63,159 bases of DNA from Nitrososphaerota archaeon (GCA_028867615.1 JAGWGC010000001.1:3188-66346); one strand, 5' to 3'. Positions 25 through 62,639 are shown, counted from the first letter of the stretch. Notes: generated by a model from the sequence alone, not told the origin. A program made the numbers and translations.

Positions 25-42
25 AATTTCAAATCTGATATT
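25..42. promoter_or_regulatory. Degenerate copy of palindromic motif (AATTTCA-aatc-TGATATT) upstream of DUF302 gene
   Basis: Resembles ATTATCA-N4-TGATAAT; TATA-like TTATAAT starts at 54. Confidence 0.5.
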
Positions 43-82
43 GTTCAAGGCTATTATAATGTGTGATATTGCTAGTATGGCT

Positions 83-490
83 ATGACAAGTGCGGAAAAG
101 AGCTCAAGTTTTAGCTATACCGTGAAGACTCTAAAGACAGTAAATCAGGCAGTTGATGATGTGACAACAAGTCTAAAGGATGTAGGCTTTGGCATTTTAG
201 GCACTCTGGATTTTAAGGAAATTTTACAAAAGAAGGGATTGGATTTCAAGGATGAATATAGACTCTTAGAAGTATGCAACCCTGGAGCCGCAAAACAGGT
301 ATTGGAATTAAATCCAGAGGTTGGGTTGCTATTACCATGTACTATTGCAGTGTATCGGAAAAATAATGAGAACTTTATCAGCTTGGCAAAACCTACATCT
401 CTTCTAAATAATATTCATGATTATAGATTAGAAAAATTTGGCGAGGAAATTGAACAAAAACTTGTACAAGCCATAGAGAAAGTGAAATGA
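83..490 (+). CDS. DUF302 domain protein
   Basis: YRLLEVCNPGAAKQVL...GLLLPCTIAVY signature; ATG at 83 (or 77) preferred over TTG at 41 from TATA position. Confidence 0.85.
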   Translation: MTSAEKSSSFSYTVKTLKTVNQAVDDVTTSLKDVGFGILGTLDFKEILQKKGLDFKDEYRLLEVCNPGAAKQVLELNPEVGLLLPCTIAVYRKNNENFISLAKPTSLLNNIHDYRLEKFGEEIEQKLVQAIEKVK

Positions 491-674
491 TGAATTCTCT
501 TGTTTCTAATCCTGGAATGGCTAGTCAATGTCTACCTGATGTACTTTCTAGCGTAAAACAGTTACTTGCCTATGATGTAAAAACAAAAGAACAATTTGAA
601 TCCGACCAAGTTAAATGCTCAATCCATCACCGACAAACTTTTTGTAAAGGACATGATTCACACACTATCAAGAT

Positions 675-1106
675 ATGAGAAAAAAAATCACTCGAATACT
701 TGTACCATTGGATGGTTCCAAAAATTCCCTGAAGGGATTGGATTTTGCAATTTATCTCGCAAGACAATGTGGCGCAACCATAACAGGACTATACGTATTA
801 TCGTTTTACATAGCAGATAGTGGTCCAAGAATATTCGGACCATATAAAAAAGATCTTCTCCGAAATGCAAAGAATTTCATCTACGATGCAAAAGTTCGTT
901 CAGCAAAAGAGGGTGTGGACCTGAAAGAAAAAATAATTGAGGGCGATGTAGTCTTCCAAGATATTGTAAAATACGCAAATAGTGGGAAATTTGACATCAT
1001 GGTCATGTCGTCAAGAGGATTTGGACCTGTAAAAGGATGGTTCCTGGGAAGTGTTACTTATTCTGCATTACATAAATCAAAGATACCAATACTAGTGGTC
1101 AAATAA
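675..1106 (+). CDS. Universal stress protein (UspA family)
   Basis: ILVPLDGSKNS N-terminus; MSSRG...LGSV...PILVVK C-terminus. Confidence 0.95.
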   Translation: MRKKITRILVPLDGSKNSLKGLDFAIYLARQCGATITGLYVLSFYIADSGPRIFGPYKKDLLRNAKNFIYDAKVRSAKEGVDLKEKIIEGDVVFQDIVKYANSGKFDIMVMSSRGFGPVKGWFLGSVTYSALHKSKIPILVVK

Positions 1107-1631
1107 ATGGATGAAAAATCATTCTTGGAGTTTCTAAGAAGAAGACGATCAATCAGGTCGTTTAAAGAAAACACAATCGATGAATCACAGATAAATGAGA
1201 TACTTGAAGCAATCAATTTGGCACCATCATCAGGTGGTCTGCAAACCTTTGAAATTTACCGGATAAAAAATAAAGAAACCAAAGACAAACTAGCTTTGGC
1301 AGCAAAAGGTCAAACCTTTGTAGCGCAAGCTCCTTTACTACTGGTCTTCTGTGCAAACCCGTCTCGTTCTGTTGAACGATTTGGAGAGAGATCACAGTTG
1401 TTTTCTGTTCAAGATGCCACCATCGCAGCTGCTTACGCTCAGCTAACATTGCATGCAATGGGGTTGTCCACCGTATGGATAGGGGCGTTTGATGAAAAAC
1501 AAGTCTCAGAGATACTGGATATCCCAAAAGGGCAAAGACCAGTTGCAATACTTCCCATAGGTTATGAAAATGAGACGCCAAAGGAAAAGTCAACTAGAGG
1601 GGTAAAAGACATACTACATGTAATAAACTAG
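1107..1631 (+). CDS. Nitroreductase family protein
   Basis: RRRSIRSF, APSSGGLQ, GLSTVWIGAF and ILPIGY motifs; abuts USP stop codon. Confidence 0.92.
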   Translation: MDEKSFLEFLRRRRSIRSFKENTIDESQINEILEAINLAPSSGGLQTFEIYRIKNKETKDKLALAAKGQTFVAQAPLLLVFCANPSRSVERFGERSQLFSVQDATIAAAYAQLTLHAMGLSTVWIGAFDEKQVSEILDIPKGQRPVAILPIGYENETPKEKSTRGVKDILHVIN

Positions 1632-1739
1632 GAAATTACCAACTGATGATTATTTTCTCTTGTTATTTGCGGTAAAATTATAGTCTATACTCCAACCTGC
1701 CAATATCTATTTATTGAAACATTCTTGTCCTAGATTAAA

Positions 1740-1979
1740 ATGAAATTTGAAAAACGTGAACTTCTCTTGATTGTGGGAGTTTTGCTTGTGATGATTGGAA
1801 TGATGTCAGTTCTTGCACCTGCATATGCCCTTGTAATTGCAGTCTTGATATATTTTGGAATCAGAGTGTTTGTTGGAAGGCGAAAAAGGCAGATTCAAAG
1901 AGAAATTGGCCAGGGCATTTGTGCAACATGTGGGGCAAAAATAATGGATAACAAGTGCCCCAAATGTGATTCTGCATAG
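1740..1979 (+). CDS. Small membrane protein with C-terminal zinc ribbon
   Basis: Hydrophobic hairpin followed by CATC...CPKC. Confidence 0.75.
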   Translation: MKFEKRELLLIVGVLLVMIGMMSVLAPAYALVIAVLIYFGIRVFVGRRKRQIQREIGQGICATCGAKIMDNKCPKCDSA

Positions 1980-2142
1980 GAAACCATTGTATGATTTTGG
2001 TATGAATTCTGAGTATGCCTTATAATACTTGCAAGAGTATTTTGTTTATGAGAATTCATGCATATTGTGCATTAACCACTTGCTCAACTTTTCCACAATT
2101 AACACCTAAAATTCTAAAAGTGGTCTTGAAATGGTATAACAG

Positions 2143-5100
2143 ATGAAATACTCTAGCTCAGGCCTTATTGCAGGAATTGTTCTCTTGCTTGTAATCGGGC
2201 AAAGTTATGCCGTAAATGCACAAACCATAACAATTGCAAACCATGTTGTGATAAACGAAGCAGAGATAAATCCTGCCATTGATGATACCAAGTCTCCTGC
2301 CCAATGGGTCGAACTGTATAACCCGACCAGTTCTCCTGTCAATATAGGGGGATGGACTATCGGGGCAACAACTGGACTAAGACAGGCATATACAATATCT
2401 GCAGGTACCACAATCCAGAGCCAGCAGTTTATTGTTTATCACTATGTACCAATTTGGTTTCCACATGCTGGTGCTGTAATACAGCTAACCGATCCAACTG
2501 GTACAGTAATTGATCAGACCCCTCCACTCTCAGACACCCAGAGTGATGGCAACACGTGGCAGAGAATGTACGACGGTCTTAGCACGGGCTCTGCAAGTGA
2601 CTGGGTGTACACTATTGGCACTCCTGGGTTTTCAAATGGAAAACCCCCAACAACCAGTACAACAACCCAGCTAACAATGTCTGTATCAACTGACAAGCAG
2701 AGCTATGTTTTTGGGGACTTTGTAAACATTAGTGGTAAAGTATCTCAACTTGTCATGAATTCTGCGGTATCTTCAATTCCTCAGACTGTTAACATGGTTT
2801 TGTCCGGTCCGCAAGGATTCAAGCAAACATTTTCACTATATCCTGGAAATGATTTCAAGTTTTCTCAGTCTGTAAAGACTGATCAGGTGCTGGGATTTTC
2901 TGAAGGAACGTATACTATTTCTGCATCATACGGAGGTATACAAACATCCACCACATTTTCATTAAATTCAGTAGCATTTGTTCCACCAACACAAGCCGCA
3001 CCGACAACACTTGTCATATCCACGGATCATTCCAATTACACAACCTCGCAGCCTGTTATATTGCAAGGAACTGTCTCAAACGTAATTCCGCTTACTCCTG
3101 TACAGTACAAGGTTTATGATCCAACAAATGTCTTGATATATCAAGGAAATTTGTTTCCTGATGCCCAAGGGAAGATAACTTCTGTGAATCCATATCAGAG
3201 CAGCACTGGCAGCTCCGGATTGCTCATCAATGGAGTAAATCCAATTTATGGAATATATCGAGTGAGTGCCACTTATGGCGGTGCATCTGCCACTACGACA
3301 TTCATACTTGTTCCTGTTCAAATACAAACTAGTCAGATAACATTATCGACTGACAAACCAGCATATGCCCCAGGTGAAACTGTTACACTCAAAGGAAGCA
3401 CACTGCTTCAAGGATTACAAAATGCTGGACTGAGCCCCACTCTGCAAATAATCCAGACAGGTGTTGGCTCTAGTTCTCAAACCTCTACTAGTGTCACAAA
3501 TGCAGTAAATATCAAGACGCAGATCAACCTCAAATCTGATAATACATTCTCATATCAGTTTGTCCTTTCTGGAACCTCAAGCAGTTTGGGAAATTATAGA
3601 GCAATTATCTCGATACCGCAAGGTAGTGCGGAATCTGACTTTGTTGTCATGCAAAACCCATCTGCATACAATGGTACAACGTCATCGTCTCCATTTACCA
3701 TTGCTACCGACAAGAGTTTGTATGCTATAGGAGACCCGATAACAATATCTGGCCAAATTCTGCATCCCATTCAAATCTCCACCCAAAATTCCGGAGTAGG
3801 TGTAAGCATTCAGGTTTTGAACTCAACAGGCATGCCAGTAACATCTGCTGGTAGTTTGCATGCTAATATATCGACACTGACCAGCAACCAAACCGCACCT
3901 ACTGTCACTGCTAACGCCTTGTCTTACTCTGTATTCCCTGATGCTAATGGTCGCTATCAGGTACAACAAATTGTCCAGACTGGAGTATATCAGCCAGGAA
4001 ATTACATGCTCAAGGCATCTTATCTAAATTTGGTTGCCTCAACAACATTTACAGTATATGATCCGCTTGCAACAGGCTCGCAGGGTCCAATTGCTGCAAG
4101 TACTGACAAAAAAGTATATGGCGTTGGAGATACGGTACAATTGACTGGAAACATTTCAGCTCAAACAAGTACTTCGTCTTTTACACTGACATTGATAAAA
4201 CCTGATGGGGAACAAATAACGTCTCCATTAATTCTTAACAATGGTCACTTTTTATGGACTTGGACAGTAGCAAGTACTGCAAGTCAAGGTGCACAAATTC
4301 TAACTGATAGGTCCTCTTCCCCTATATCAGATCCTACAATCAATGTCTATGGAATATACCACATAAAAATAAGTTCAGTCAATGTAAACACTGATCTGTT
4401 TTTCCAAGTGTCTAAAAACCCTCAGCCAAACCAAGACATTGCTCCACTTGTAGTGATGACTGATAAGACAAACTATACCTCAACAGATGTGGCAAAGATC
4501 TGGGGAGAGGTTGTCCCAATACAAAATGCTGCATCTCAGGATACCAATACAGCAGTTCAAATTTTGATTTACTCTAGCACTGGACAAGAGATTTACCGCG
4601 GTAATGCAAACGTCAACCAAGGCGGTCAATATTATGCTACGGTGCCATTCCATATTGGTATCTGGAATGCCGGAGTCTACAAGCTTTATGTTCAATATCT
4701 TACAAATACGATAATATCGTCATTTAGTGTGCATGACCCATTTGCAACAAATTCCACAGGGTTACAGGTCTTTATGACTACTGACTCTGACAAATATCTT
4801 CCGGGACAAACTGTACTTGTTACCGGAAGGACAAGCAGCATAGTTTCAGTCAATAATGTGAATCTTTCATTTGGTATTGCAAACGATACCACGATAAGTG
4901 AGGGCCAGGTCGTATCAACTACAGGAAACGTGATACCGACAGTTACTGTACCATTTGATCAATTTGGATCCTTTAGCTACAATTACAAGATCCCAAGTAA
5001 TGCACCACTTGGAAATTATACTATAATTGCGCAGGTGCCATTTGGGACATACAATGCATACTTTAGCGTGGTAGACAAACTACCGGTCAATATCATTCCA

Positions 5101-5652
5101 ATCATAAACGAAACACAGACAACGCCTGCAACTGGTGTGAACAAAACTGTGATCAATGCTACTTCGCCTGTAACCATTGCTCCATATACTATAGGGCCCA
5201 CACAAAAACCCTCCAAGACAGCTAACATGTTTGTTGAAAAAATGGGCCAGATTTCAGAATCTGTTGTTCCAATAAATCTTGGTTCCAAGTCAAGTGGGAA
5301 TACCACATACTATCCTCGTGAACTTGATGGCCTTTTACGAGTAAATCCAGGTGATGTGAATTCAGTAAGCCTCAAGGTAAGCTCACAGGATGGAACGTGC
5401 ATAATTGGACAAGATTCGGGCTGCAAAATATCAGGATCTACTGTCCAGTCAGGCGGAGCATATCAGACTGAAACAATTAATGGCATGCAATATCTTGTTG
5501 GATATTCAGGAACAGGCGGAAGGCTGACACAGTTTAGTATCATACCTGCACATGCTGGCGATGTAATACCAGATGGGCAGTGGGGCATTCAAATAATTAA
5601 AAAAGACCAGGTGACTAGATTCTATTACCAAGTAACATATGTCAGCAAATAA
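2143..5652 (+). CDS. Large secreted protein: lamin-tail domain plus repeated MG2/Ig-like modules
   Basis: Signal peptide; VVINE...QWVELYNPT...VNIGGW lamin-tail motif; about 7 repeats of TDKxxYxxGxxV. Confidence 0.85.
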   Translation: MKYSSSGLIAGIVLLLVIGQSYAVNAQTITIANHVVINEAEINPAIDDTKSPAQWVELYNPTSSPVNIGGWTIGATTGLRQAYTISAGTTIQSQQFIVYHYVPIWFPHAGAVIQLTDPTGTVIDQTPPLSDTQSDGNTWQRMYDGLSTGSASDWVYTIGTPGFSNGKPPTTSTTTQLTMSVSTDKQSYVFGDFVNISGKVSQLVMNSAVSSIPQTVNMVLSGPQGFKQTFSLYPGNDFKFSQSVKTDQVLGFSEGTYTISASYGGIQTSTTFSLNSVAFVPPTQAAPTTLVISTDHSNYTTSQPVILQGTVSNVIPLTPVQYKVYDPTNVLIYQGNLFPDAQGKITSVNPYQSSTGSSGLLINGVNPIYGIYRVSATYGGASATTTFILVPVQIQTSQITLSTDKPAYAPGETVTLKGSTLLQGLQNAGLSPTLQIIQTGVGSSSQTSTSVTNAVNIKTQINLKSDNTFSYQFVLSGTSSSLGNYRAIISIPQGSAESDFVVMQNPSAYNGTTSSSPFTIATDKSLYAIGDPITISGQILHPIQISTQNSGVGVSIQVLNSTGMPVTSAGSLHANISTLTSNQTAPTVTANALSYSVFPDANGRYQVQQIVQTGVYQPGNYMLKASYLNLVASTTFTVYDPLATGSQGPIAASTDKKVYGVGDTVQLTGNISAQTSTSSFTLTLIKPDGEQITSPLILNNGHFLWTWTVASTASQGAQILTDRSSSPISDPTINVYGIYHIKISSVNVNTDLFFQVSKNPQPNQDIAPLVVMTDKTNYTSTDVAKIWGEVVPIQNAASQDTNTAVQILIYSSTGQEIYRGNANVNQGGQYYATVPFHIGIWNAGVYKLYVQYLTNTIISSFSVHDPFATNSTGLQVFMTTDSDKYLPGQTVLVTGRTSSIVSVNNVNLSFGIANDTTISEGQVVSTTGNVIPTVTVPFDQFGSFSYNYKIPSNAPLGNYTIIAQVPFGTYNAYFSVVDKLPVNIIPIINETQTTPATGVNKTVINATSPVTIAPYTIGPTQKPSKTANMFVEKMGQISESVVPINLGSKSSGNTTYYPRELDGLLRVNPGDVNSVSLKVSSQDGTCIIGQDSGCKISGSTVQSGGAYQTETINGMQYLVGYSGTGGRLTQFSIIPAHAGDVIPDGQWGIQIIKKDQVTRFYYQVTYVSK

Positions 5653-25217: not shown

Positions 25218-25284
25218 TTTTCTTGATCACTTGATATGATATTTTACGAACATTAAATATTATGCAGAACAATGTTCAGTCATC

Positions 25285-25593: not shown

Positions 25594-25596
25594 TAT

Positions 25597-27555: not shown

Positions 27556-27652
27556 ATATCTTTTACCTATTGCATGCTAGAATTTGCTTGTTATTAAAAG
27601 TCAATATGAAAAAATACTGTGAACCATATGAGATTTTTAAAATTTAGGGTTT

Positions 27653-35858: not shown

Positions 35859-36719
35859 ATGCTGTTTGAACACCCTGTCCTACTAACCTCTATTCTGAAA
35901 AAAGCAATTACAGTAACTCCAAATACAAGTGTGATTGCCGCACTAGACCTTTTACTACGATATAGAATAAAGCGCCTAGTAGTGATGAAAAACAACAAAC
36001 CTGCAGGCATCATAACAGAAAAAGATCTTACAAGATCCACATCCGCATTTAGTGGACGCGCCATTGGAGACATGATAGTAGGTGACTTTATGTCAGAGAA
36101 TCTAATAACAGTAAAGAAAAACAATTCTATTTATGATTGTGCCAAATTAATGAAAAAGAACAGCATCAGCTCAATCGTAGTGCTAAATGAAGATGACTCC
36201 CTTACTGGAATTATCACTAAAACTGACCTTGTTGGAGCATTTTTGATCAATGGTGCAACAGACAAGAAAGTGTTGGAATACACGAAACGTAAAATAATTA
36301 CGGTAGATCCTAAAGAGTCACTTTTCGTAGTTCAAAGTGTACTTGTCAACAACAAAATCTCGAGGGTCATAGTAGGGAAAAATAAAATACCTGTTGGAAT
36401 TATCACATATCGGGACTTTCTCCCTGCTAAAACAGCTAATTGGATACAAGAGTATGCTGAGATAGACGATCTAGAAGAGTTGAAAAATCATCCAAGATTA
36501 AATGAATTTAATGCAAATAGTCTTGATCATGCCCTTACATTTAGAGCAGAAGACATCATGACTCCAAATCCTATTGTAGTAAACAAAAATGAATCCATCT
36601 TCAAAGCAGCATTACTAATGATTCGTCATCAAATAAGTGGATTACCTGTAACCCATGACAAACTATTGACAGGAATTATTACAAAATCCGATATTGTGAA
36701 TGCCATATCAAAAGATTAG
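35859..36719 (+). CDS. CBS domain protein (4 CBS)
   Basis: GIITEKDL, GIITKTDL, GIITYRDF and GIITKSDI repeats. Confidence 0.93.
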   Translation: MLFEHPVLLTSILKKAITVTPNTSVIAALDLLLRYRIKRLVVMKNNKPAGIITEKDLTRSTSAFSGRAIGDMIVGDFMSENLITVKKNNSIYDCAKLMKKNSISSIVVLNEDDSLTGIITKTDLVGAFLINGATDKKVLEYTKRKIITVDPKESLFVVQSVLVNNKISRVIVGKNKIPVGIITYRDFLPAKTANWIQEYAEIDDLEELKNHPRLNEFNANSLDHALTFRAEDIMTPNPIVVNKNESIFKAALLMIRHQISGLPVTHDKLLTGIITKSDIVNAISKD

Positions 36720-45918: not shown

Positions 45919-45936
45919 ATTATCATCTGTGATAAT
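45919..45936. promoter_or_regulatory. Perfect palindromic motif copy (ATTATCA-tctg-TGATAAT)
   Basis: Exact consensus; minus-strand TTTTAAAT begins at 45907; weaker copy at 45992-46009. Confidence 0.65.
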
Positions 45937-46293
45937 AGATGCGCGTACCGGATATGAAACTTTGGGTTTTCACATCTAGTGATTGACATGTACTATCATA
46001 TGTGATGATCTTGAATTTCTTTATCAATACAATTGAATGCATAGGTAACTGATACTGTAATTCTCTAAAGTATGAAATGGATGAATGCTGTGATCACTGC
46101 ATTTTAGTAAATAACGTATATCTGTCATATCATGATGAAATAAAGCGATTCTAAAGTAAATTTTATGAAAAGCATGATATAATGCAATTTTTAAACCATT
46201 TTTTGTAAATATTTTGATTCTGATCCTGATTTTCATTGCTGAAATTCATATCCTTATATAATATCAATGCTTTTTACAATTCTCTTAGTGTAT

Positions 46294-52200: not shown

Positions 52201-53391
52201 GGTTATGTTACTGCCAAAGTGGATGTGACAAAATGCAAACAAACCGTTAGCTTTACACCAATTCCGATAATTGGCGCAAACAGTCCTGATGCTCCAAAGA
52301 TATTCGATGTAAAATTACAAATAGGTAATGGTACATGGGTACCTGCAACAGAAACAACTGATGAATACATTACAAACCAAAACGTGACCATTTCCGGTCT
52401 AGTTTACAGTCCTGTTCCTCTTAGCCATGCCGAGATAAGGACAGTGAAAATAGATGGCAATACAACAATCGGTTATGATAAAGTTAGTGCAACCGTTACT
52501 CCGACTACTGTATCTCACACATATCTTGTAAATGCAACACTACCGCAAGACTATCTTGTACCGCCTGCAACAACTTATTGGATATACGCAAACAATGCAG
52601 GAGGATTTGAGAGTGAATCTGATCAATATTCTATCGGGGTATCTCCAGCATATGCTGTGAATGGAACAATTGGATTTGTGATACCTCAAAATGTGCCAGC
52701 AGGTTTGACACAAAGCCCACAGGTGTACTTTACTAATAATTCCACTGGTACGCTGTATGGAACAATATCGTTATCTGTTGATGGCAAGCAAGTATCACAA
52801 TTTGTTGACCATGTATTTGACAGGGGAACGTCTGTAATGGAACTTGACTGGAATGTCGCAAGGACAAATGATACTACTACACATTCTGTTCAAGCAATTG
52901 CTACATTTTATGGTCATACAATTGTATCAGACAATGCTACAGTCAACGCATACGTGACCAAAAAAATAATGTCACTTGAAAACATGGTGCCACTGGAATC
53001 ACTTGTTGATACACAAGGAAACGTTGTTGCTACTCCGGGGTCTCTATATTCGTCGTTTGTATCACATGATGGAGTCACATTCCATGTTGTCTCACCTGAC
53101 GGAACATGTGTAGTTGGGGAATCAACGGCATGTCTTGTTAGTGAATCTACTATAAACACGAGTGGGAGGTACTCTAGCATCACGCTTGATGGGACAAACT
53201 ATGTAGTGTATTATTCGGGTGGAAATAGCACGCTGGAGAGATTCCTGATTACCTCGTTGCAGCCTATTACTGGGAACTGGAAAGTTTCACTGGAAAAGAA
53301 TGGTATAGAACAAAAAGATCTAGAAACCGCTGTACATCTGAACATCAAGTATGTCCCTATAAATAAACAACTCTTGGTCTCATTGCCATGA
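46294..53391 (+). CDS. Giant secreted surface protein: 3 LamG/concanavalin-like domains, MG2-like domain, Ser/Thr repeats
   Basis: Three SAWIKP...WTHLAATF...YVNG...F.G.IDE LamG units; NTDKSIYRPGET; alternative start at 46267. Confidence 0.88.
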   Translation: MRKKCILHYLLISILSVSVSYVSSGWDLQTAQAQDENLGTSSGVIQELLTWNFNNLNPDQITFSNPIRVMDGPTGHSLKFDGKNDYVRIASSKVGYVQDLTVSAWIKPNYNLTSEQFTIISKPESFSLYLKSDGQSHYAEFSVYDGTKWHTIESKTQIGTHWTRLLGIFDGRSIGIYVNGTIDSVDLVTTPTLDDLFPISYGNISTADVLIGSSENGLSENNFFAGQIDDVQVTPSDGYVVGSALENQPAFTYDNNTSTIRSNVTIPTNATNLSPALSSSNATIPRIPSNVTIPTNATNLSPALSISNATIPGIPLNATITSNTTIPEIPSNMPQPVRYFGFNLNSILPTDMTQNATITANGILGTALQLTGGYVSTSIPETDHLENLSLSVWIHPDYGTGGKTITIVNKANSFLLQIQNIAADQGTASFSIFDGITWHTVESKAMIPIGWTHLAATFNGTGISLYVNGILDSSQLVSTLGVSESGQLQSGLVHLNSDSNVLIGSQLGNQGADNQFNGLIDELAIFDVYLDSTQINSIFESTVKSTGFTPLTVLPPLIPENITITQIPIPSTKLNFSSTSQNKSNTFGDVSISTGVNGSALELSGSGYMSENLTSTNQISQFTISAWVKPDYQKGSAEYTILSKEKSFLLTIHNNLTPRKIALFSIFDGTTWHTVESKSKIPEIWTHLAATFNGTDISIYVNGLKESTLPVSSIGISIGGQLETKTIQNIESSADVLIGAQQISRDATTTVQGLFGGKIDEVQIYKSALSPSEIYVEYLKNAAAARGQIPSTVSNATVPMVPSNMTTLSNATLSNATTSIISSNTTAQSGITLPIAMSVKKLKTSYLMTESPEFVFEFISSDVLKKHGKSTSESFGEQQTGRWSDKNGTISVDVTDLSGKSIPVNVNFVKLRDGKFDIKLGSERAGKAGMYTMKITLAEGGKTYTTESTYAWGLVSLNTDKSIYRPGETANLVIVVLDNDGHSVCNSNIVMNIHDPTSGVTTLSTGNGITANPSCGLYDAQYVVPEVGNYTIDMTAQNPSGVANFTTSFLSADNFDFDVIRTSDSKIDPTSNPNSFDVAIDVSSFVNVNNVIIQESVPSSFKVSTDATVQTMGDVQILTWSKSLIGNKTSVSYTYSVPPVYPQLYALGPVQITSGSNTYFKEARPWFVAVDPSVNRLYLRAFTSPDAPTLGTHSAILPVGTFKGNSGTGFEDLSMSSVMGTATTSVTKTLTSIAQTAHQDNYIARFTSSSLAAQTIPAGTWTFALQTSEANNNANSFIVGSLYVWRPSTSSVVGYVYDSDTALGTEWGATTTGRVVTVTGSSVTTQDGDVLVFEMWRHAAQAANTGYVQTLYFDGTTDVTNGGTASAASYIQSGSPMVFGTLAASSVTSSDAVHVAVTRNTSLSDSVSVTDAVSVHAVKTVSLSDSASAADAVSTAASRAQSQSENTQVSDTVTTAVNMTKSTSDLITLSDTMTTSSGKSQSQSENTQVSDTVTTAVNMTKSTSDLITLSDTMTTSSGKSQSQSENTQVSDTVTTAVNMTKSTSDLITLSDTMTTSSGKSQSQSENTQVSDTVTTAVNMTKSTSDLITLSDIVAAQKSTSISINDTTELSDGLSAAASKQISNLDELTVTDTASLLKISPDQYLVPNNQTTVIVTPSKPHLIVTSSNAALSSIMIPTTVTSPTLSYATIVSSGTVHLLHSLNITKDTNGDNKTEVVVTIPAVTDISNSAWDGILQLPTLQSSSSLVLPTPQGQVATANTVIGMGSSLPLTFNNATRILFVGEAGSHVGYFYTPTSVTEIISTCTSDDQSVANGLAAGESCKINVGTSLVVWTKHFTGFVTWTLKPAPITPSAPQLPTASGGGYGTGVITPMETGAETAAGMLSTGVTLYDVTYDVCDKQQVQFTVGSPDSTTPTVEFATPSGVVEAKISSHQPYAGLYDLTKQYVLSYDAKLKPGTKSFNMLITPGNGTGYVTAKVDVTKCKQTVSFTPIPIIGANSPDAPKIFDVKLQIGNGTWVPATETTDEYITNQNVTISGLVYSPVPLSHAEIRTVKIDGNTTIGYDKVSATVTPTTVSHTYLVNATLPQDYLVPPATTYWIYANNAGGFESESDQYSIGVSPAYAVNGTIGFVIPQNVPAGLTQSPQVYFTNNSTGTLYGTISLSVDGKQVSQFVDHVFDRGTSVMELDWNVARTNDTTTHSVQAIATFYGHTIVSDNATVNAYVTKKIMSLENMVPLESLVDTQGNVVATPGSLYSSFVSHDGVTFHVVSPDGTCVVGESTACLVSESTINTSGRYSSITLDGTNYVVYYSGGNSTLERFLITSLQPITGNWKVSLEKNGIEQKDLETAVHLNIKYVPINKQLLVSLP
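47077..47229 (+). repeat. 81-bp tandem duplication encoding an N-glycosylation-rich linker
   Basis: SNVTIPTNATNLSPALS.SNATIP occurs twice. Confidence 0.85.
50614..51067 (+). repeat. 120-bp tandem repeat, about 3.8 near-identical copies
   Basis: Lines starting at 50641, 50761, 50881 and 51001 are identical; one substitution seen at 50742. Confidence 0.95.
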
Positions 53392-53446: not shown

Positions 53447-54313
53447 TCAGGTCTCTAAAAGTTTTCTAATTGTTTTTAATTCCTGCATTCGCCTTACATC
53501 CATTTTTGGATAGGACATTTTGAGTTTTTTTAGCGTATCAAGAACAATCTGGGAAATAATCAGGTGAGTGTTCTCTTTGTCATCTGCTGGAATGATATAC
53601 CATGGCGCATTAGGTATGCTTGTGGCAGTTAGACAATCTTCGTAAGCCTTCATGTATTGCTTCCAGAATTTTCTTTCCGTCATGTCAGCAATGCTGAATT
53701 TCCAGTTCTTTTTTGGGTCGTCAATACGTTTGAGAAAACGTTTTCGTTGTTCTTCCTTTGAAATGTGAAGGAAAAATTTGAGGACTCGAGTTCCATTTCG
53801 GTATAAGTGATTTTCCAGATCTACGATTGAACGATATCTATCATACCAAATAGTTTTTCTGTTGGATTCATCCGCAACTCTTTCACTATCCAGTATATCT
53901 GGGTGTACGCGAACAATCAGTACTTCCTCATAATGAGAGCGATTGAAGATGCCTATTTTTCCCCGTTCGGGTAGGCAACGAATTTCACGCCATAGAAAAT
54001 CATGTTCAAGCTCATTTGCACTAGGGTGCTTAAAACTAAATACTTGACAGCCTTGTGGGTTTATGCCTGACATGACATGTTTGATGGAGCCATCCTTTCC
54101 TGCAGCGTCCATGGATTGGAAGATCAACAATATGGAATATCGGTTATGTGCATAGAGTAGATTTTGCAATGAGCTTAATTCATGGATGTGTTCACTGAGT
54201 ATCTGTTTGTACTGATCTTTTGATTTGTAAACCGGCTTTACCACTGTGGGCCATTTGTTGAGTTTGACTTTTTCTCCAGGCCTCACACGAAAGTCTTTGG
54301 AATTTATCTGCAT
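53447..54313 (-). CDS. ppk2: Polyphosphate kinase 2 family (class III-like) protein
   Basis: [29 protein letters not shown] and KNWKFS motifs. Confidence 0.93.
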
Positions 54314-54653: not shown

Positions 54654-54671
54654 ATTATCGCAAACAATAGT
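54654..54671. promoter_or_regulatory. Degenerate palindromic motif copy (ATTATCG-caaa-CAATAGT) upstream of CBS-HPF gene
   Basis: Extends to TGATTATCG/CAATAGTCA; TTTTTATA starts at 54683. Confidence 0.5.
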
Positions 54672-54729: not shown

Positions 54730-55902
54730 ATGGTTTCACCTCAAATTATCTATGCACATTTGAAAGCAGTCAGGGATCTTAAGATAGACAAGATGCTAAA
54801 GAAAGCAACTACCATCGATGTTTCCTACACTGTATCTAAAACGGTTGGGGCCCTGGTGAATTCAAATTCTTATGATGCATTTTGTATGGATGGTAAAGAT
54901 GTACTTACTGTGAGTGCAAGAGAACTTTTGGGAACAAAAGATATCGAAAATATGAAAATAAAGCCAATTTTACGAAAAATTCAGGTCCTGACTAGGGATG
55001 ATACGATAGAAAAAGCGGCTGCAATTTTGTCTCATTATAGAATGCGTTCAGTTCCAGTTGTTGAAGGCAATGAGATAGTAGGAGTAGTTGACGTGAAAGA
55101 CATTGTTGAACTATTACATAAACAGGATTTAAAATGGATACCTGCAAACAACATTCTCACAGCAGACCCAATTATAGTAAAAAACAGTGATTCGCTTGCA
55201 ACTGCAAGAAAAATAATGATTACCAAAAAAATAGATCATCTTCCAATCATCAAAGCCAACAAGGTTTCGCATGTCTTAACCTCGATGCATCTGTTGCAGG
55301 TGATGAAACCTACTGAAAGGCTAGGAAGCATGTTGCGGGGACTAGACTTACACAAGGAATACCAGTCCGAGATTGGAAATATGGGTAGTGCACGCATTCC
55401 AAATCTTGACACTCATGAATCTCTTAGTACTGTAATAGAGTCAATGTTAAAAAATGATGCATCGTGCTGCTTACTCACTTTGTGGGATCACGTACATGGA
55501 ATAATTACCTACAAAGACATTGTCAATATACTTGAATCAAAAATCCCCAGCGATGTTCCACTTTTCATTGTTGGTCTCCCAGAAGATTACAGCAGTGCCT
55601 CGATTGTAAAGACAAAATTCGATAAAATAATTAGAAATCTAATCAAAGTATTTCCTGATGTAGAACAGGCAAAGGCATCAATCAAGACGATACATAATCA
55701 AGTCAGTAATAGGCCACATTACGAAGTTACAGTCAGGATATTCAGTCCCTACAGAACCTTCAACTATACTGAAATGGGATGGGATCTCTCAAAAGTTTTC
55801 GATATTCTTGGCACCAAAGTAGCCAGAAATCTGGCCCAGCATGGTAAGAAGAAACGTTTGAAGACATCAATTAGAAAAATAGACAAAAAAGACATTTTCT
55901 AA
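54730..55902 (+). CDS. 4xCBS plus C-terminal HPF/RaiA-like domain; putative ribosome hibernation factor
   Basis: CBS repeats followed by ~100 aa ending YEVTVRI...GWDLSKVFDILGTKVARNL. Confidence 0.78.
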   Translation: MVSPQIIYAHLKAVRDLKIDKMLKKATTIDVSYTVSKTVGALVNSNSYDAFCMDGKDVLTVSARELLGTKDIENMKIKPILRKIQVLTRDDTIEKAAAILSHYRMRSVPVVEGNEIVGVVDVKDIVELLHKQDLKWIPANNILTADPIIVKNSDSLATARKIMITKKIDHLPIIKANKVSHVLTSMHLLQVMKPTERLGSMLRGLDLHKEYQSEIGNMGSARIPNLDTHESLSTVIESMLKNDASCCLLTLWDHVHGIITYKDIVNILESKIPSDVPLFIVGLPEDYSSASIVKTKFDKIIRNLIKVFPDVEQAKASIKTIHNQVSNRPHYEVTVRIFSPYRTFNYTEMGWDLSKVFDILGTKVARNLAQHGKKKRLKTSIRKIDKKDIF

Positions 55903-55999: not shown

Positions 56000-56869
56000 T
56001 CATGTAAAATGCGGATCCTGTTTTTGCATTATTGCATGAATTTTTACTTCATGATATGCACGAATAATATCGGTCGCACTAATCACTCCCTCTAGGTTTC
56101 CTCTGTGATCTACCACTGGAACACCACTTATCTTATACTGGACCATTAATTTGGCTGCTTTGGCAAGATCCTCTTCAGATTCGATTGTGAGAAGCTCATC
56201 ACCAATCAAGTCGCCAACTTGTAATTCTTTGGCAGAAGTTCTCAGTGGCAGATATTCCAGTGTGGTTTCAGTTCTTGTTCCAAACTTGAAATACTCGCTA
56301 TTTTTCAAAAATGTATCATAACTGATTACTCCAACTGGCTTGCCATCGTTATCCGTTACAACAAGCCTTGAGATCTTATTTTTATTCAATGCATTAAGTG
56401 CAAATGGTAGAGAATCAGATTTGCGACATGTTATCATCTTGGTATTCATGTAATTTTTGACTTTGTAGATGCCTCTGAATAATGCCGAGAAATTTTTTAC
56501 AAGATCAGATTTTGTAACAATCCCTATGAGTTTTCCATCCTCATCTACAACGACAATGGAGCTTATCTGAAATGCGTCCATTCGTATTGCACATTGTACT
56601 AAAAGTTCCTCTTGGTCATTCATGATTGTTATGATGTGCCTACTCATTATCTCGCTGAGGGATATTTTATCCAAAGTTCTTGTTGTTCTATCATTTTCTA
56701 AAAACTTGCCAATATCACGCTCAGTTACTATGCCGATGGGAATGTTGGCGTCATTTATAACGACAATTCGTTTTATATCGTTTTTTTTCATGAGTGATAA
56801 TGTTTCATAAATATTATTCTCAGAACTTAATGTTATGACAGGAGTGGTATAAGTGACAGATTTCGTCAT
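56000..56869 (-). CDS. CBS domain protein (4 CBS)
   Basis: GIVTERDI, GIVTKSDL, GVISYDTF and GVISATDI; ATG at 56869 preferred. Confidence 0.92.
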   Translation of the reverse strand: MTKSVTYTTPVITLSSENNIYETLSLMKKNDIKRIVVINDANIPIGIVTERDIGKFLENDRTTRTLDKISLSEIMSRHIITIMNDQEELLVQCAIRMDAFQISSIVVVDEDGKLIGIVTKSDLVKNFSALFRGIYKVKNYMNTKMITCRKSDSLPFALNALNKNKISRLVVTDNDGKPVGVISYDTFLKNSEYFKFGTRTETTLEYLPLRTSAKELQVGDLIGDELLTIESEEDLAKAAKLMVQYKISGVPVVDHRGNLEGVISATDIIRAYHEVKIHAIMQKQDPHFT

Positions 56870-56953: not shown

Positions 56954-57286
56954 TTATACAAAATTGGGAATAATCTCTACATCAAGCATGCCATTATTGA
57001 AACAAGTCATAATGGACTTGATCTTGGATTTGTACAAAAAGTACTTTTTCCCATCTTCATTAATTGAGCCTGATATGCCAAGAAGTTTGAGGCCATGTAA
57101 TCTCTGTACTCTCCTGTATGCAGTACTGATTGGTACGCCACACTCCTTGCTGAGATCAATAACTGATTTTGGCATTTCAATTGTTGATTCTAGTATTAGG
57201 CGAGAATACTTGTCTGCCATGACTTCTAGCAGAACATCTTTTGTTGTTTGTTCTTGGACAGGTTTGCCCTGGATTAATACTTGCAT
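56954..57286 (-). CDS. Winged helix-turn-helix (ArsR-like) transcriptional regulator
   Basis: ADKYSRLIL...PKSVIDLSKECGVPISTAYRRV..L...LL...GKKYFLY. Confidence 0.88.
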   Translation of the reverse strand: MQVLIQGKPVQEQTTKDVLLEVMADKYSRLILESTIEMPKSVIDLSKECGVPISTAYRRVQRLHGLKLLGISGSINEDGKKYFLYKSKIKSIMTCFNNGMLDVEIIPNFV

Positions 57287-57407: not shown

Positions 57408-57854
57408 TCAATGCACTATGGTTACAGGGCATTGTGCGTGCTCTGAGACATGTCTTGCAGTGCTTCCAAGGCGTTTTACCACTGATATGCCTGTGAGTCT
57501 TCTACTTCCCATGATTATCATGTCAGCCTTTAGTTTTTTTGCCTCTTTTAGGATTGCATTTGAAACATCATCGTGTACAATTTTGTATGCAGTCCTGGTA
57601 CCTTCCTCTCTGCATTTCTCCACAACTTTTCCCAACTCTTTTTCCCCCTGTTGCTTGAGGGTTTTGACTATTTCCTGGTAATTTGTTACGGCTGCTCCTG
57701 AAAACACAGAGTCGTTTATTGGATAATACACAGGGATGACCATGAGGAGTGTCAGATCTGCTGTAAAGTTTCTTGCAATGTCTTTTGCCAATGCAAGAGC
57801 TTTCTTTGACAAGGGCGAACCATCATATGGAATTAGGATATTTTTTAATGACAT
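57408..57854 (-). CDS. Universal stress protein
   Basis: ILIPYDGS; MGSR...LGSTA...CPVTIVH; ATG at 57854 preferred. Confidence 0.93.
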   Translation of the reverse strand: MSLKNILIPYDGSPLSKKALALAKDIARNFTADLTLLMVIPVYYPINDSVFSGAAVTNYQEIVKTLKQQGEKELGKVVEKCREEGTRTAYKIVHDDVSNAILKEAKKLKADMIIMGSRRLTGISVVKRLGSTARHVSEHAQCPVTIVH

Positions 57855-57897: not shown

Positions 57898-57938
57898 ATT
57901 ATCAAATATGATTTTATCTTGTTATCAACAGTGATAAT
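57898..57938. promoter_or_regulatory. Two tandem palindromic motif copies between divergent USP and CBS genes
   Basis: ATTATCA-aata-TGATTTT (57898-57915) and GTTATCA-acag-TGATAAT (57921-57938), each about 12 nt from a TATA-like box. Confidence 0.7.
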
Positions 57939-57978: not shown

Positions 57979-58428
57979 ATGCTGACTGCGCGAGCAATCA
58001 TGTCAAAAAAAATAATCACTATGGAGTCAACTACATCTCCAACAGATATCGCAAAGGTAATGCACAAAAACAATGTAAGCTGTGTCATTGTGACTCAAAA
58101 TGAGAAACCATATGGAATAATAACTGAGAGAAGCTTTTTATCGAAAATTTCAGCACAAAATAAAAAACCATCTGACGTGAAATCGACCGAAATGATGTCT
58201 TCTCCTGTTATCACTATTTCTGCATCTGCATCTGTTGATGATGTTGCACAGGCAATGTTGGAAGGAAAAATTAGACACGTACTGGTGGTAAATGACAACC
58301 AGCCATTGGGAATAATATCTATAACTGATTTTCTAAAACATTTTGGTGCAATAACTGCTGATTCAGATAGTTACAAAAAAGATCTATACGAAAATTTGTT
58401 TGAAGAATACGAATACTGGGATAGATAA
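57979..58428 (+). CDS. CBS domain protein (2 CBS)
   Basis: GIITERS, MMSSPVITI and GIISITD motifs. Confidence 0.92.
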   Translation: MLTARAIMSKKIITMESTTSPTDIAKVMHKNNVSCVIVTQNEKPYGIITERSFLSKISAQNKKPSDVKSTEMMSSPVITISASASVDDVAQAMLEGKIRHVLVVNDNQPLGIISITDFLKHFGAITADSDSYKKDLYENLFEEYEYWDR

Positions 58429-58635: not shown

Positions 58636-59154
58636 ATGGTAAAAATCAGTAACGAGAAACGCCTTCCTGTAACAGCACAGAATCCGTGGCTTGAACCTCT
58701 TTTCACGCAGTGGAATGAGCTACCGTGGTTTAAAACCGGGTTTATGGAGATGGATTCAACATGGGACAAACTTTCAGAAAATTTTGAACACATGTATGAG
58801 ATGTTTCCAAATTACATGCGACAGTTTCCAAAAGACATAAGCTGCGACCTTGTAGACCGTGGAGACATGTATGTTCTCACTGCAGACTTGCCGGGAATAC
58901 AAGATGAGGATGTAAAGGTAAATGTAACTGGCAGACATGTGGAAATTTCAGCAGAGCACAAAGATGTAAGCGAGGAAAAATCAAAAAATTATGTCAAAAA
59001 TGAAAGATCTTTCCTACGGTATAGGAGAATTTTGACTGTTCCAGAAAGGATCGCTGAATCCGATATAACAGCAAAAATGAATAACGGAACTTTGACAGTA
59101 GAGTTACCCAAGAAATCAAGCATCAAGAAAGAAACTAAAGTGCAATCAAAGTAA
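58636..59154 (+). CDS. Small heat-shock protein Hsp20
   Basis: DLVD...ADLPG...ER...AKMNNGTLTVELPK. Confidence 0.95.
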   Translation: MVKISNEKRLPVTAQNPWLEPLFTQWNELPWFKTGFMEMDSTWDKLSENFEHMYEMFPNYMRQFPKDISCDLVDRGDMYVLTADLPGIQDEDVKVNVTGRHVEISAEHKDVSEEKSKNYVKNERSFLRYRRILTVPERIAESDITAKMNNGTLTVELPKKSSIKKETKVQSK

Positions 59155-59408: not shown

Positions 59409-59987
59409 ATGACTGTTAAAAGACAGCCGCATCCTGCAAAACATGAACAGACAAGGAGCATAAGTTATCGACTCCCAGAGTATATTGTAAACGAATTGGA
59501 GACAGAGGCAATGCAAAAGGAAGTTTCACAAAATGTTCTGGTAAAACAAATATTGGAAAAATATGTTCGGTGGGATAGATTTGCAGATAAGATAGGCATA
59601 ATCCCAGTGCCAAAGGAAATTCTCAAGATACTTGGAGATGAAATGAAGGGTGATGAAATAAACAAGATAATTGACATCATGATTCCGATGATAAAAGACT
59701 GGGTCATGTTCATGAAAGGAAATTATGACTTGAAGCGGGCAATAGAAGCACTTGAAGATTATATGCGTGCCTCTGGCATGACATCAGATCATAGAATAGA
59801 AGGAGGCATACATCATTTCATAATACAACACAATCTTGGGATTAAGTGGTCACTTTTCACTGAACAACTATTAAAGCAAATATTTCACCAGTTTTTACCA
59901 GGACTTGCAATGCAATGCAAAACGACTCCTAATACTACTATTGCAAGTATAGCTCTTGGTTCGGACTTTAACGAACACGTATACTAG
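59409..59987 (+). CDS. Putative regulator with N-terminal ribbon-helix-helix
   Basis: RSISYRLPEYIVNELETEA...VSQNVLVKQILEKY. Confidence 0.65.
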   Translation: MTVKRQPHPAKHEQTRSISYRLPEYIVNELETEAMQKEVSQNVLVKQILEKYVRWDRFADKIGIIPVPKEILKILGDEMKGDEINKIIDIMIPMIKDWVMFMKGNYDLKRAIEALEDYMRASGMTSDHRIEGGIHHFIIQHNLGIKWSLFTEQLLKQIFHQFLPGLAMQCKTTPNTTIASIALGSDFNEHVY

Positions 59988-60002: not shown

Positions 60003-60758
60003 CTATGATACTGTTACTACTCCGATTCGCCATGGGTGTATAGAACAGAAATAATGGTACACACCAGGCTTGTCAAACTTGTGAGTAAACGTATCACCTG
60101 TCTTTAGAATGGGGCTGTTAAACATTGGGATGATAGTTCCCTGACTGTTTATGCTTTGAACTGTGTGATCAATATTATCTTGGTTTTTCCATGTTACAGT
60201 TGTGCCCTGTAAAACTTCCAAGTTAAGCGGTATGAAGAAACCAGTGCTAGCCTGTACTGAATTGCCATTTGGTATGGTCACATTGGCAGTTAGATATGAT
60301 GTTACATTGTCAATTGGATGGCTCTTGCTACTTACTAGATATTCTAAAATGTAGTTTTGATCACTGTTTTTCAATTCTGCACTTATCTTCCACAAGGATC
60401 CTGCCGCTGATGCAAGTAGCCTATCGCCATCTAAAATCATGTCGTATGTGGTATTATCTCCTGAAATTACAGGTCCAGATGCATGAAATGAGCCGTCAGT
60501 ACCATATGCAAACTTCCATTGGCTTGCTGTCATCCTTTCAACTACTGTAGTCTGGTCCGTGCTTATTGTTACAAGACCCCTGTCAATTGTAGTGTGATTT
60601 GAAAGTAGGATCCTAACACTTGACTCGTACATTTGCGGTGAGCCAGAGTTTAGTAATGCAATTCCAGACCCTTTCATTATAGTTGAGGACGAATCTGCAT
60701 ATGCCGTACCAAACAATACCGTAGAAACCAAAATTAAAAGTAAAATGAAATGTTTCAC
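60003..60758 (-). CDS. Secreted protein with C-terminal cupredoxin domain
   Basis: GTTVTWKN.D...HTV...YFCSIHPW; GTG start at 60758 gives a clean signal peptide (ORF track start 60773). Confidence 0.87.
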   Translation of the reverse strand: MKHFILLLILVSTVLFGTAYADSSSTIMKGSGIALLNSGSPQMYESSVRILLSNHTTIDRGLVTISTDQTTVVERMTASQWKFAYGTDGSFHASGPVISGDNTTYDMILDGDRLLASAAGSLWKISAELKNSDQNYILEYLVSSKSHPIDNVTSYLTANVTIPNGNSVQASTGFFIPLNLEVLQGTTVTWKNQDNIDHTVQSINSQGTIIPMFNSPILKTGDTFTHKFDKPGVYHYFCSIHPWRIGVVTVS

Positions 60759-60902: not shown

Positions 60903-61382
60903 ATGGTTATAATTCCAAAAGAAGTTCAAGGTATGATGTCTAGACAAAAATTTGTCGTAGTGGGATCTATTGATTTGAATGGCATGTGTAACCTATCTCC
61001 AAGAACCTCGTTTTACTTTTTAGAAGATGTGATCTACTGGCTTGATTTTTTCAAGCATAAATCTCACTATAATTTCAAAAATGTTCCATGGGTAAGTGTT
61101 GCAGTATTTGACAAGGAGGATCTAAAGGGATATCAGATGAAAGGCAAGGTTAGCTTTGTGACAAACAAACAAGAGAAATCAAGAATTACTGATATCATAT
61201 GCCGTTCCGCAACAGGTAAGACTAGTGCAAAAATATTTGAAAGAATGGCTCATGCGGAACAACCAGAACTAATAATGTTCAAACCGCATGCGGTATATTC
61301 GTTAAATCCTGCAGAGGATTCTGGTACTGCAATCATGATTGATAGTGATTCAGAAACAGTATCTCTATTGGGTGTAAAATAA
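60903..61382 (+). CDS. Pyridoxamine 5'-phosphate oxidase-like FMN/F420-binding split-barrel protein
   Basis: G.CNLSPR...KS..N...P.VSVAV...GYQMKG. Confidence 0.85.
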   Translation: MVIIPKEVQGMMSRQKFVVVGSIDLNGMCNLSPRTSFYFLEDVIYWLDFFKHKSHYNFKNVPWVSVAVFDKEDLKGYQMKGKVSFVTNKQEKSRITDIICRSATGKTSAKIFERMAHAEQPELIMFKPHAVYSLNPAEDSGTAIMIDSDSETVSLLGVK

Positions 61383-61515
61383 TTGCAATTGATGACTAAC
61401 AATAGTGAGTACATCTTCTATTTCTGACACTTCATGCCAAAAAGTAGGATAAGACTTGGGTGTAGAGAAAAAATCGGACTCGGGACTGGTTTTTTATTCG
61501 ACAATCATGCGTAGG

Positions 61516-61953
61516 TTAAATTTTTTGCATCCTTGCTATTATCTCTGTACAAATTCGGCTCATCTCTGAATCAGAGCCAAGACTACATATCCTTGTCAAA
61601 TCTGTTGCTGTTACAATTCCAACTAGCTTGCCATTATCTACTACAGGCACCTTGTGGATTTGTTTTTGTTTCATCAGCTCGGCAAGTTCCCATAGGCTTT
61701 CTTCAGGATCTATCATGACCAATGGTGTTGACATTATGTCTTTGACAGAAGTAGATAGCGGTTTTTGAAGAGCAATGATTTTACGAACGAGATCCCTTTC
61801 TGTTAGTATTCCAACTGCGGTATTATTCTCAGTTATGATAACACACCCAATGTTTGCATCTTTCATCATCTTTGCTGCGTCCGAGACAGTTGATGAAGAG
61901 TTGATTGAAACTACATTGAATTTCATCACATTTCTAACAAAACTTTCTACCAT
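61516..61953 (-). CDS. CBS domain protein (2 CBS)
   Basis: GILTERDL, IMSTPL and GIVTATDL motifs; alternative start 61962. Confidence 0.93.
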   Translation of the reverse strand: MVESFVRNVMKFNVVSINSSSTVSDAAKMMKDANIGCVIITENNTAVGILTERDLVRKIIALQKPLSTSVKDIMSTPLVMIDPEESLWELAELMKQKQIHKVPVVDNGKLVGIVTATDLTRICSLGSDSEMSRICTEIIARMQKI

Positions 61954-61991
61954 GCGATGCATGGCATTCGTGGATTTAAAAAATCTAAATC

Positions 61992-62013
61992 TGATTATCA
62001 GAGATGAGAATCA
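61992..62013. promoter_or_regulatory. Palindromic motif copy centred between two divergent promoters
   Basis: TGATTATCA-gaga-TGAGAATCA with TATA-like boxes about 12 nt away on both sides. Confidence 0.72.
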
Positions 62014-62052
62014 TATATTCTTCTTAAATTCATTTTACAACATATTTGTGAC

Positions 62053-62391
62053 ATGTCACAAGAAATTGAATCAATGTACGATTACGTACTAGAAAACATT
62101 TCATCAAAATTGCAGAAAATAGATCCAGGGCTTGCCATGCGAGTAATGGAGTATGAAAGAAAATTCAATGATGTAGCGCCTGCTGTAAACTTACATGTTC
62201 ATTACAAGGCAGGAACAGACAGCGAAAAAAAATTGGACCAATTAAGGTCAAGATATGGATACTGCATGGCAAAAGAGGGAAAATCCAGTCTTCTTGCACA
62301 GGGGAACATGAGCCTAAAGACGATAGAAGCAATATCAAACGACCCTGAGGTTGAAACGGTAACAGGCTCTGCTTCAATAGCATCATACTAG
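62053..62391 (+). CDS. Hypothetical protein
   Basis: ATG start about 30 nt after TTAAATT; plausible composition. Confidence 0.7.
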   Translation: MSQEIESMYDYVLENISSKLQKIDPGLAMRVMEYERKFNDVAPAVNLHVHYKAGTDSEKKLDQLRSRYGYCMAKEGKSSLLAQGNMSLKTIEAISNDPEVETVTGSASIASY

Positions 62392-62621
62392 TACAATATG
62401 CATCTGGGGAATTAGGATCTACCTACTCCTAAATCTAGTCATTGAATTTATTTAATTTAATCATGGCCAAACTTGCCAACTCCTTTTGTGTTGAAAGTGT
62501 CTTGATGAAGAACTGTATCACAGATAGGGAGCGGGAGTGAAAAACCCATGGGATTGCTTCCATCGTGCTTTTATGCTCCTGTCACAATTCTCTATTGCTA
62601 ATACTGTTGTATTGGTAATTT

Positions 62622-62639
62622 GAAATCAATTTTGATAAT
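62622..62639. promoter_or_regulatory. Palindromic motif copy (GAAATCA-attt-TGATAAT) upstream of USP
   Basis: TTAATATG starts at 62650. Confidence 0.6.

Follow-up and report, generated by a model that had tools for sequence, protein, structure and literature searches.

The regulator CsmR (HVO_1209) of Haloferax volcanii has been known since 2026, when chromatin immunoprecipitation sequencing (ChIP-seq) placed the motif TATCA(N4)TGATA, adjoining a TATA box, in 50 of 65 peaks, one peak lying between csmR and arlA1 (PMC13286277). csmR is reported in Halobacteria and Thaumarchaeota, and the thaumarchaeal copies do not co-occur with archaellins, hinting at another function (PMC13286277). Here we analyzed a stretch of 63,159 nucleotides (nt) from a Nitrososphaerota archaeon (GCA_028867615.1, JAGWGC010000001.1:3188-66346), referred to as the window, with a Nitrosotalea sp. 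as a named relative at 99% protein identity. It carries many copies of the palindrome ATTATCA-N4-TGATAAT, which a sequence-only reading of the window had proposed as the operator of an archaeal regulon. That reading did not recognize the motif, which holds for Thaumarchaeota and fails for archaea as a whole, since the core is that of the Haloferax ChIP-seq motif. The motif and the protein family are already known from Haloferax; what is new is a proposed regulon on a CsmR-type site in the order Nitrososphaerales with a different target set. Our literature search found no regulon on this site in the Nitrososphaerales.

A positioned palindrome and its spread through the Nitrososphaerales

All 14 cores named in the sequence-only reading are present in the window (Table 1), with the 0 to 4 mismatches it gave in 13 of them and 5 in the core at 58579; those at 45919 and 60799 are perfect palindromes. 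With up to 2 mismatches, the window holds 13 matches compared to 0.94 ± 1.01 expected from 100 shuffles, none of which reached 13, bearing out an excess over shuffled DNA, and a good site absent from the earlier list lies at 46229-46246. The reading had further claimed a TATA-like box and a start codon at set distances. All 14 sites have a box of the form T[AT][AT]A[AT] that starts 9 to 14 nt past the core, and 12 of them an in-frame start codon 39 to 43 nt from the core, the sites at 54654 and 45919 deviating. The weak sites at 54654 and 58579 are not significant on their own, but strong sites occupy the same place in the orthologous promoters of genome G009 (16.0 bits at 60 nt and 19.5 bits at 39 nt, respectively); their counterparts in G014 are as weak as those in the window.

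The idea of one operator with fixed geometry defining one regulon finds support far beyond the window, in counts within genome G000, in an independent matrix and in order-wide patterns. In G000 (1.6 Mb, 77% complete, 14% intergenic by our own gene calls), 13 of 13 sites with at most 1 mismatch are intergenic. A spacer of 4 yields these 13 sites, compared to 0 to 3 for the other spacers from 0 to 12, and the half-site ranked first among 140 letter permutations (13; next best, 5). By count, sites with at least 3 mismatches do not rise above background (111 versus a permutation mean of 61 and a maximum of 149). The matrix that scores the window sites includes positioned G000 sites and is circular for position; the clean positional test comes from a matrix of 24 G009 sites, which contains no position information and no G000 data. 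It places sites 39 to 42 nt before 19 of 1,640 G000 starts, where 1.85 would be expected under a uniform distribution and 200 column-permuted matrices gave a mean of 0.84 and a maximum of 12. With spacers of 2, 3, 5, 6, and 7, the same matrix finds just 1 to 3 positioned starts. In the logo of 104 positioned sites, a box, first T-rich and then A-rich, lies 12 to 19 nt past the core. Across sites, the distance from core to TATA box is 11 to 13 nt, without overlap of the site with the TATA box or the start; the TATA profile of family-linked sites was drawn from regions chosen under the condition of a TATA box at 9 to 13 nt.

Spread through the order was judged from stricter patterns, because a loose order-wide pattern overstated it. 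The reversed control underestimates the background in AT-rich genomes, and the loose pattern gave 21 matches in G038 compared to 7 for the control, mostly within genes or without an open reading frame (ORF) behind them. Eight sites in G216 are real and lie before Usp, CBS, Hsp20, and pyridoxamine-oxidase-like genes. In many genomes of the genus, the strict consensus is well over its control, and the strict pattern of core, TATA box, and ATG gave 337 matches in 201 genomes versus 29 for the reversed control, 24 of the 29 in family f15. With this pattern, site-positive genomes make up 41/49 in family f1 (control, 0), 33/47 in f10, 6/7 in f7, 7/7 in f4, and 7/10 in f9, compared to 1/9 in f12, 0/3 in f13, and 0/5 in f19, which lack enrichment of the site. 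In f15, two complete g56 genomes have hardly any excess or none (3 versus 5 and 8 versus 4 rows, site versus control). Five GC-rich f10 genomes carry the variant ATTCTCA-N4-TGAGAATCG followed by a TATA box in 83 rows, some sites being counted more than once, versus 0 for the control, which answers the worry that matches are cheap in AT-rich DNA. The f10 sites have a flanking C in 77% and a flanking G in 80%, neither of which the search pattern demanded. Two single observations may be added: in f5 genome G028, a molybdopterin oxidoreductase gene resembling thiosulfate reductase PhsA has a perfect site 42 nt before it (L008:1-1224), and the coding sequence of housekeeping cdc48 carries a near-perfect palindrome in several genomes of the genus (L018, L024, L028, L050, L061), probably as a result of coding constraint.

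A CsmR-family candidate regulator and its proposed mode of action

The logos of Nitrososphaerales sites match TATCA(N4)TGATA, and the distance to the TATA box is close to the ~12 nt found in those sequences of CsmR table S10 that end in a TATA-like box. By searching with the published CsmR site, we found L310, a locus that carries primer sequences of PMC13286277 and has a 112-amino-acid (aa) gene between cheY-like and archaellin-like ORFs; from the primer matches and the gene order, this gene is taken as csmR or a near-identical orthologue. Two L310 sites score 12.0 and 9.7 bits with the Nitrososphaerales matrix. The candidate regulator in the window, P0002, can be assigned by homology to HVO_1209 to the CsmR family of ~13-kDa winged-helix proteins: the match of the L310 protein to P0002 covers 81 residues at 26% (E 8e-10), that to the family profile stands at 98.5% in hhalign, and among all G000 gene calls the protein matches only the five family paralogues. 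Of the 103 plasmid matches of P0002, the 30 listed are all haloarchaeal.

The small winged-helix gene recurs in site clusters. With the family profile, copies turn up in each of the site-positive families tested; none were found in f12 (0/3), f13 (0/2), or f6 (0/1), families without site enrichment. Among 67 copies scored, leaving out rows shorter than 70 aa, those with a Y-R-R helix have a site within ~70 nt past the stop codon in 14 of 35 cases and within 3 kb in 29 of 35, compared to 0 of 15 and 1 of 15 for copies with a Y-K helix. We consider it highly probable that the binder of the operator is of the CsmR family. Several points weigh against this assignment. The family is also present in f15 (6/6) and f19 (2/2), where the site is not enriched; most of these copies have other helix residues, with one copy each in G166 and G103 reading Y-R-K. 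The adjacency counts are biased in that many loci were fetched for holding sites and kin are not independent.

Overall, we interpret the palindrome as a conserved promoter element, likely the operator of a CsmR-family dimer, with P0002 as the best candidate, that would co-induce stress and dormancy genes, probably at low oxygen or energy, a reading in which we have fair confidence. The dimer would read the two half-sites and, placed beside the position of the TFB recognition element (BRE), may help TFB and TBP to load on mostly leaderless promoters, a step we advance with modest confidence; TFB-RF1 and Ptr2 set a precedent for TFB contact from a site upstream of BRE and TATA. Lacking a sensor domain, P0002 would depend on a partner or a modification to set its activity. 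No CirA (KaiC-like) homologue matched at E 1e-5 in the six frames of the 77% complete G000 or in the loci up to L305.

The term activator, used in the sequence-only reading, derives from site position only, and we put activation slightly ahead because the spacing between site and TATA box is rigid. A CsmR-family protein might instead repress or dampen these promoters by blocking TFB access near the BRE, to be released under stress, which we regard as possible but rather doubtful. It would explain why motif-bearing targets rise most in the csmR deletion of H. volcanii, which the authors read as direct derepression while leaving the sign open (PMC13286277), and this result counts against activation. 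The BREs behind sites hold 1.75 purines of 4 compared to 2.29 (12 versus 308 promoters), a weakness that is not significant (p = 0.09) and is compatible with repression. The hypermotility seen on CsmR overexpression (PMC13286277) argues against a repressor, and the rigid distance without overlap of TATA box or start fits contact with TFB better than steric blocking.

Among the five paralogues of G000, P0002 is fairly probably the binder. In the P0002 clade, a site lies just past the stop codon in six Nitrosotalea-type loci as well as in L134, G111, G114, G123, and G216. The choice of paralogue and a one-to-one orthology of P0002 with CsmR are both tentative, because the C44 copy scores higher against CsmR (2.7e-7, compared to 4e-6 for P0002) and the tree does not resolve where CsmR falls among the paralogues; a second tree was built without five fragments or long branches. 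These two results weigh against P0002 as the binder, and so does the fact that rival binders compared across genomes comprise three families only.

The site may be bound by another paralogue, such as the DUF7521-linked C44 copy, by a heterodimer or by an unrelated regulator, with P0002 as a mere resident of the island; we consider this unlikely. The number of paralogues speaks for it, as does the C44 copy, which is CsmR's best match and keeps the C-terminal W-helix of CsmR that P0002 lacks. G000 is, moreover, incomplete, and few of its ~100 listed regulator-like proteins, which include a TackOD1 response regulator, TrmB, HVO_0163-type, and Lrp proteins, were compared. Against it stand the sites adjoining P0002-clade genes and the lack of co-occurrence of the rival families. 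DUF7521 is a frequent neighbor of CsmR-family genes but was not found in site-positive G216, G213, and G067, and was rejected as an obligatory partner. The ribbon-helix-helix (RHH)-4VR family of P0003 was not found at E 1e-15 in site-positive G167, G110, G067, G085, and G028, and has 7 to 18 copies in four g56 genomes of f15. HTH-B12 was not found with its query in f10 (9/9) and f7 (4/4) genomes and is present in f15 (6/6). Fur was over the cutoff in 1 of 5 genomes, with none in site-rich G158 (87% complete) and G084. The P0003 family is of interest in its own right, with an invariant His141, up to 18 copies per genome, a C-terminal part without Pfam match, and a frequent position adjoining a CsmR-family gene; its fold gives only middling VirS/BcsD/H-NOX matches (Z up to 7.2).

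Target genes and the proposed inducing signal

Targets in the window comprise four universal stress proteins (Usp), four CBS-only proteins, Hsp20, a cupredoxin, a pyridoxamine-oxidase-like protein, a DUF302 protein followed by Usp and nitroreductase, and unknowns. Outside the window, G000 adds the thermosome, a P-type ATPase, and AMP phosphorylase, and has sites at 47 to 54 nt before genes for a major facilitator superfamily carrier, a P-II-like protein (named from its sequence), and Cdc48. The AMP phosphorylase operon (L121:1609-5298, on C176) also encodes an IF-2B-family protein and form III RuBisCO, with the site 41 nt before its first gene and, in G009, at 44 nt. The f10 targets are Usp, Hsp20, fumarate-reductase-family FAD enzymes, a ferredoxin heading a 2-oxoacid:ferredoxin oxidoreductase operon, glutamyl-tRNA reductase, COX15, DsrE/TusA, ferritin, citrate synthase, arginine decarboxylase, an HTH_10 regulator, and the first gene of a run in which Rieske and cytochrome b proteins are also encoded. 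No archaellum or chemotaxis genes were recognised among 19 positioned G000 targets or 34 f10 target proteins.

Two targets resemble described ribosome-binding factors. The profile of 54730-55902 aligns over positions 20-370, nearly the whole length, to HibA (9SR9; E 1.4e-12; PMC13324472). Its predicted model has an HPF-like topology at the C terminus, and one 79% homologue carries the name CBS/RaiA; in Foldseek, the top rows for the model match CBS only. The protein fits four CBS domains fused to an HPF/RaiA-like domain and is a predicted hibernation factor, its ribosome role being projected from sequence and model. The four-CBS protein at 35859-36719 best matches the SriC-SriD complex of the SriA-D system, and a SriC-short clade is reported in Nitrososphaerales (PMC13454478); here, too, a role at the ribosome is a prediction. 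The available text of the HibA and SriA-D papers mentions no CsmR-type control, and hibA is controlled by Phr in Thermococcales (PMC13324472, PMC13454478).

The output would be a shutdown program of the DosR and lxa type known from bacteria, with Usp, CBS, Hsp20, chaperonin, predicted ribosome hibernation factors, and nucleotide salvage, to which GC-rich relatives would add redox enzymes. Because the f10 targets include redox genes, we favor low oxygen or energy shortage as the condition, with a mild preference for low oxygen as the main cue. In two thaumarchaeal symbionts of sponges, hypoxia raises the expression of UspA, HSP20, CBS, and P-II genes, and in one of them also that of a lactate/malate dehydrogenase (LDH/MDH) gene (10.1101/2023.02.27.530229). 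The same source also tells against this cue, as replication is limited, the genes have no link to the motif, and anoxia did not bring the same rise (10.1101/2023.02.27.530229). So does Nitrosopumilus maritimus at 32°C, in which UspA/CBS pairs and HSP20 appear and Cdc48 rises, in what is taken for a response to heat (PMC12974425).

The chief alternative to the low-oxygen cue is heat: the same operator and family could serve a regulon for heat or general proteotoxic or energy stress, which we think improbable. Sites before thermosome, Hsp20, and Cdc48 genes in G000 agree with it, as do the N. maritimus response, the control of hibA by the heat-shock repressor Phr (PMC13324472), and the structural resemblance of CsmR to Phr (PMC13286277). 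The f10 targets (fumarate-reductase-like enzymes, 2-oxoacid:ferredoxin oxidoreductase, haem synthesis, COX15, ferredoxins), however, are no heat-shock set, and the same families turn up when the sponge symbionts meet hypoxia. Neither ammonia starvation nor copper drew a response from the uspA genes of N. maritimus, whose proteins were absent under peroxide (PMC12974425), which also counts against this rival. Chance matches in AT-rich intergenic DNA, compatible with the background count of sites with 3 or more mismatches and with the loose-pattern matches of G038, are refuted for the strong sites by spacer specificity, the positional peak, and the clean control in GC-rich genomes, and are a negligible explanation.

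Table 1. Operators, target genes, and candidate regulators in the window (distances counted from the core)
Feature	Position	Strand	Start codon, gene, or remark
Operator, 3 mismatches, 14.2 bits	25..42	+	ATG 40 nt on; DUF302 gene, then Usp 675-1106 and nitroreductase 1107-1631
Operator, 9.1 bits	11879..11896	-	GTG 41 nt on; 383-aa protein 10686-11837 without Pfam match
Operator, 9.8 bits	35704..35721	-	ATG 42 nt on; Usp 35230-35661
Operator, 20.9 bits	35800..35817	+	ATG 41 nt on; four-CBS protein 35859..36719
Four-CBS protein	35859..36719	+	Top PDB match chain 9zni_6, SriC-SriD ribosome complex, E 1.6e-19
Perfect operator	45919..45936	-	TATA-like box 12-14 nt on; next long ORF 44995-45780 at 138 nt
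Operator, 18.5 bits	46229..46246	+	GTG 41 nt and ATG 47 nt on, both in frame; laminin-G protein of 2.36 kaa, end at 53391
Decayed operator, 4 mismatches, 1.0 bit	54654..54671	+	Start 58 nt on; G009 orthologue strong
HibA-like protein, 390 aa	54730..55902	+	Four CBS domains and predicted C-terminal beta-alpha-beta-beta-beta-alpha domain
Four-CBS protein	56000..56869	-	Start 41 nt past 56911 site
Operator, 12.9 bits	56911..56928	-	25 nt past stop of candidate regulator gene 56954-57286
Candidate regulator P0002, 110 aa, CsmR-family winged-helix	56954..57286	-	
Operator	57898..57915	-	ATG 43 nt on; Usp 57408-57854
Operator, 17.5 bits	57921..57938	+	ATG 40 nt on; CBS protein 57979-58428
Decayed operator, 5 mismatches, 6.2 bits	58579..58596	+	ATG 39 nt on; Hsp20 58636-59154; G009 homologue strong
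P0003, RHH-like N terminus and 4VR/H-NOX-like domain	59409..59987	+	Located in the island; discounted as binder of the site
Perfect operator, 26.5 bits	60799..60816	-	ATG 40 nt on; cupredoxin 60003-60758
Operator, 17.9 bits	60844..60861	+	ATG 41 nt on; pyridoxamine-oxidase-like protein 60903-61382
Operator between divergent promoters	61994..62011	.	CBS protein 61516-61953 (-, 40 nt); 112-aa protein 62053-62391 (+, 41 nt)
Operator, 10.5 bits	62622..62639	+	ATG 41 nt on; Usp 62681-63106

Behind the perfect site at 45919 (41971-45780) lie genes for a stand-alone response regulator, a Cache-PAS histidine kinase (42668-44998), and a membrane protein (44995-45780), which also occur near a site in G009 (L044); these two-component genes are a possible signal input. 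A 13-bit site without adjacent TATA box at 39623-39640 is ~290 nt upstream of a TFB paralogue (39934-40839), and G014 (L054) has a weaker site at a similar distance. Two very large laminin-G/MG2 surface-type proteins are encoded at 46267-53391 (2,374 aa, behind the strong site at 46229) and 2143-5652 (1,169 aa). The 112-aa protein P0001 (62053-62391) occurs in 13 of 41 genomes, usually 40 to 41 nt behind a site, and one atlas feature match points weakly to a protease-prodomain-like fold. PPK2 (53447-54313), an ADP-polyphosphate phosphotransferase above the NCBIfam cutoff, sits inside the cluster without a positioned site; PPK2 and NiFe-hydrogenase, near sites but likewise lacking positioned ones, were dropped as targets. 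A glycosyltransferase family 2 gene and two polysaccharide deacetylase genes cluster at 23937-30774, unrelated to the sites.

Comparison with described regulons

In soils, sediments, and oxygen-minimum waters, ammonia-oxidising archaea withstand low oxygen, and our literature search found no regulon for this persistence. If the reading holds, one switch would govern form III RuBisCO salvage together with the predicted ribosome hibernation factors, and the target genes would provide a marker set for the stress state in environmental transcriptomes. Control of these stress and dormancy genes is probably the thaumarchaeal role of CsmR left open by PMC13286277, and the site, the target list, and the candidate protein make that question directly testable.

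The closest system is CsmR of Haloferax, which shares the core TATCA-N4-TGATA, a TATA-like box ~12 nt on, a ~13-kDa winged-helix family, and a site just past the regulator gene. It differs in its targets, archaellum and chemotaxis genes there compared to Usp, CBS, chaperone, hibernation-like, and redox genes here, and in that the outer bases here extend to (C/T)GATT(A/C)TCA and several paralogues occur per genome. Tentatively, this could be an ancient archaeal low-oxygen or dormancy regulon, a counterpart of DosR and Fnr, run in ammonia oxidisers and their non-oxidising kin by a CsmR-family factor, which would turn on genes for ribosome hibernation, chaperones, and redox functions; Haloferax would then have redeployed its CsmR, and the site would have been lost or altered in the Nitrososphaera-like lineage. 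In geometry, TFB-RF1, Ptr2, EarA (PMC13286277), and OxsR (PMC9426492) likewise have a site directly upstream of BRE and TATA, and OxsR is also a single winged-helix domain (PMC9426492). Their motifs and families are different, and activation, shown for them, is proposed here.

The lxa locus of Burkholderia (PMC3721108) and the DosR regulon of Mycobacterium tuberculosis, both serving dormancy at low oxygen, place a Usp cluster, Hsp20, nitroreductase, alcohol dehydrogenase, and electron-transfer genes under one palindrome, as in the regulon described here. The lxa/Anr/Fnr motif is TGA-N6-TCA (PMC3721108), compared to TCA-N4-TGA here, which lies upstream of an archaeal TATA box and is enriched with a spacer of 4 only. 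The regulators of lxa and DosR are also unrelated in type to the sensorless P0002. The regulon resembles the lxa locus and DosR in content and not in motif.

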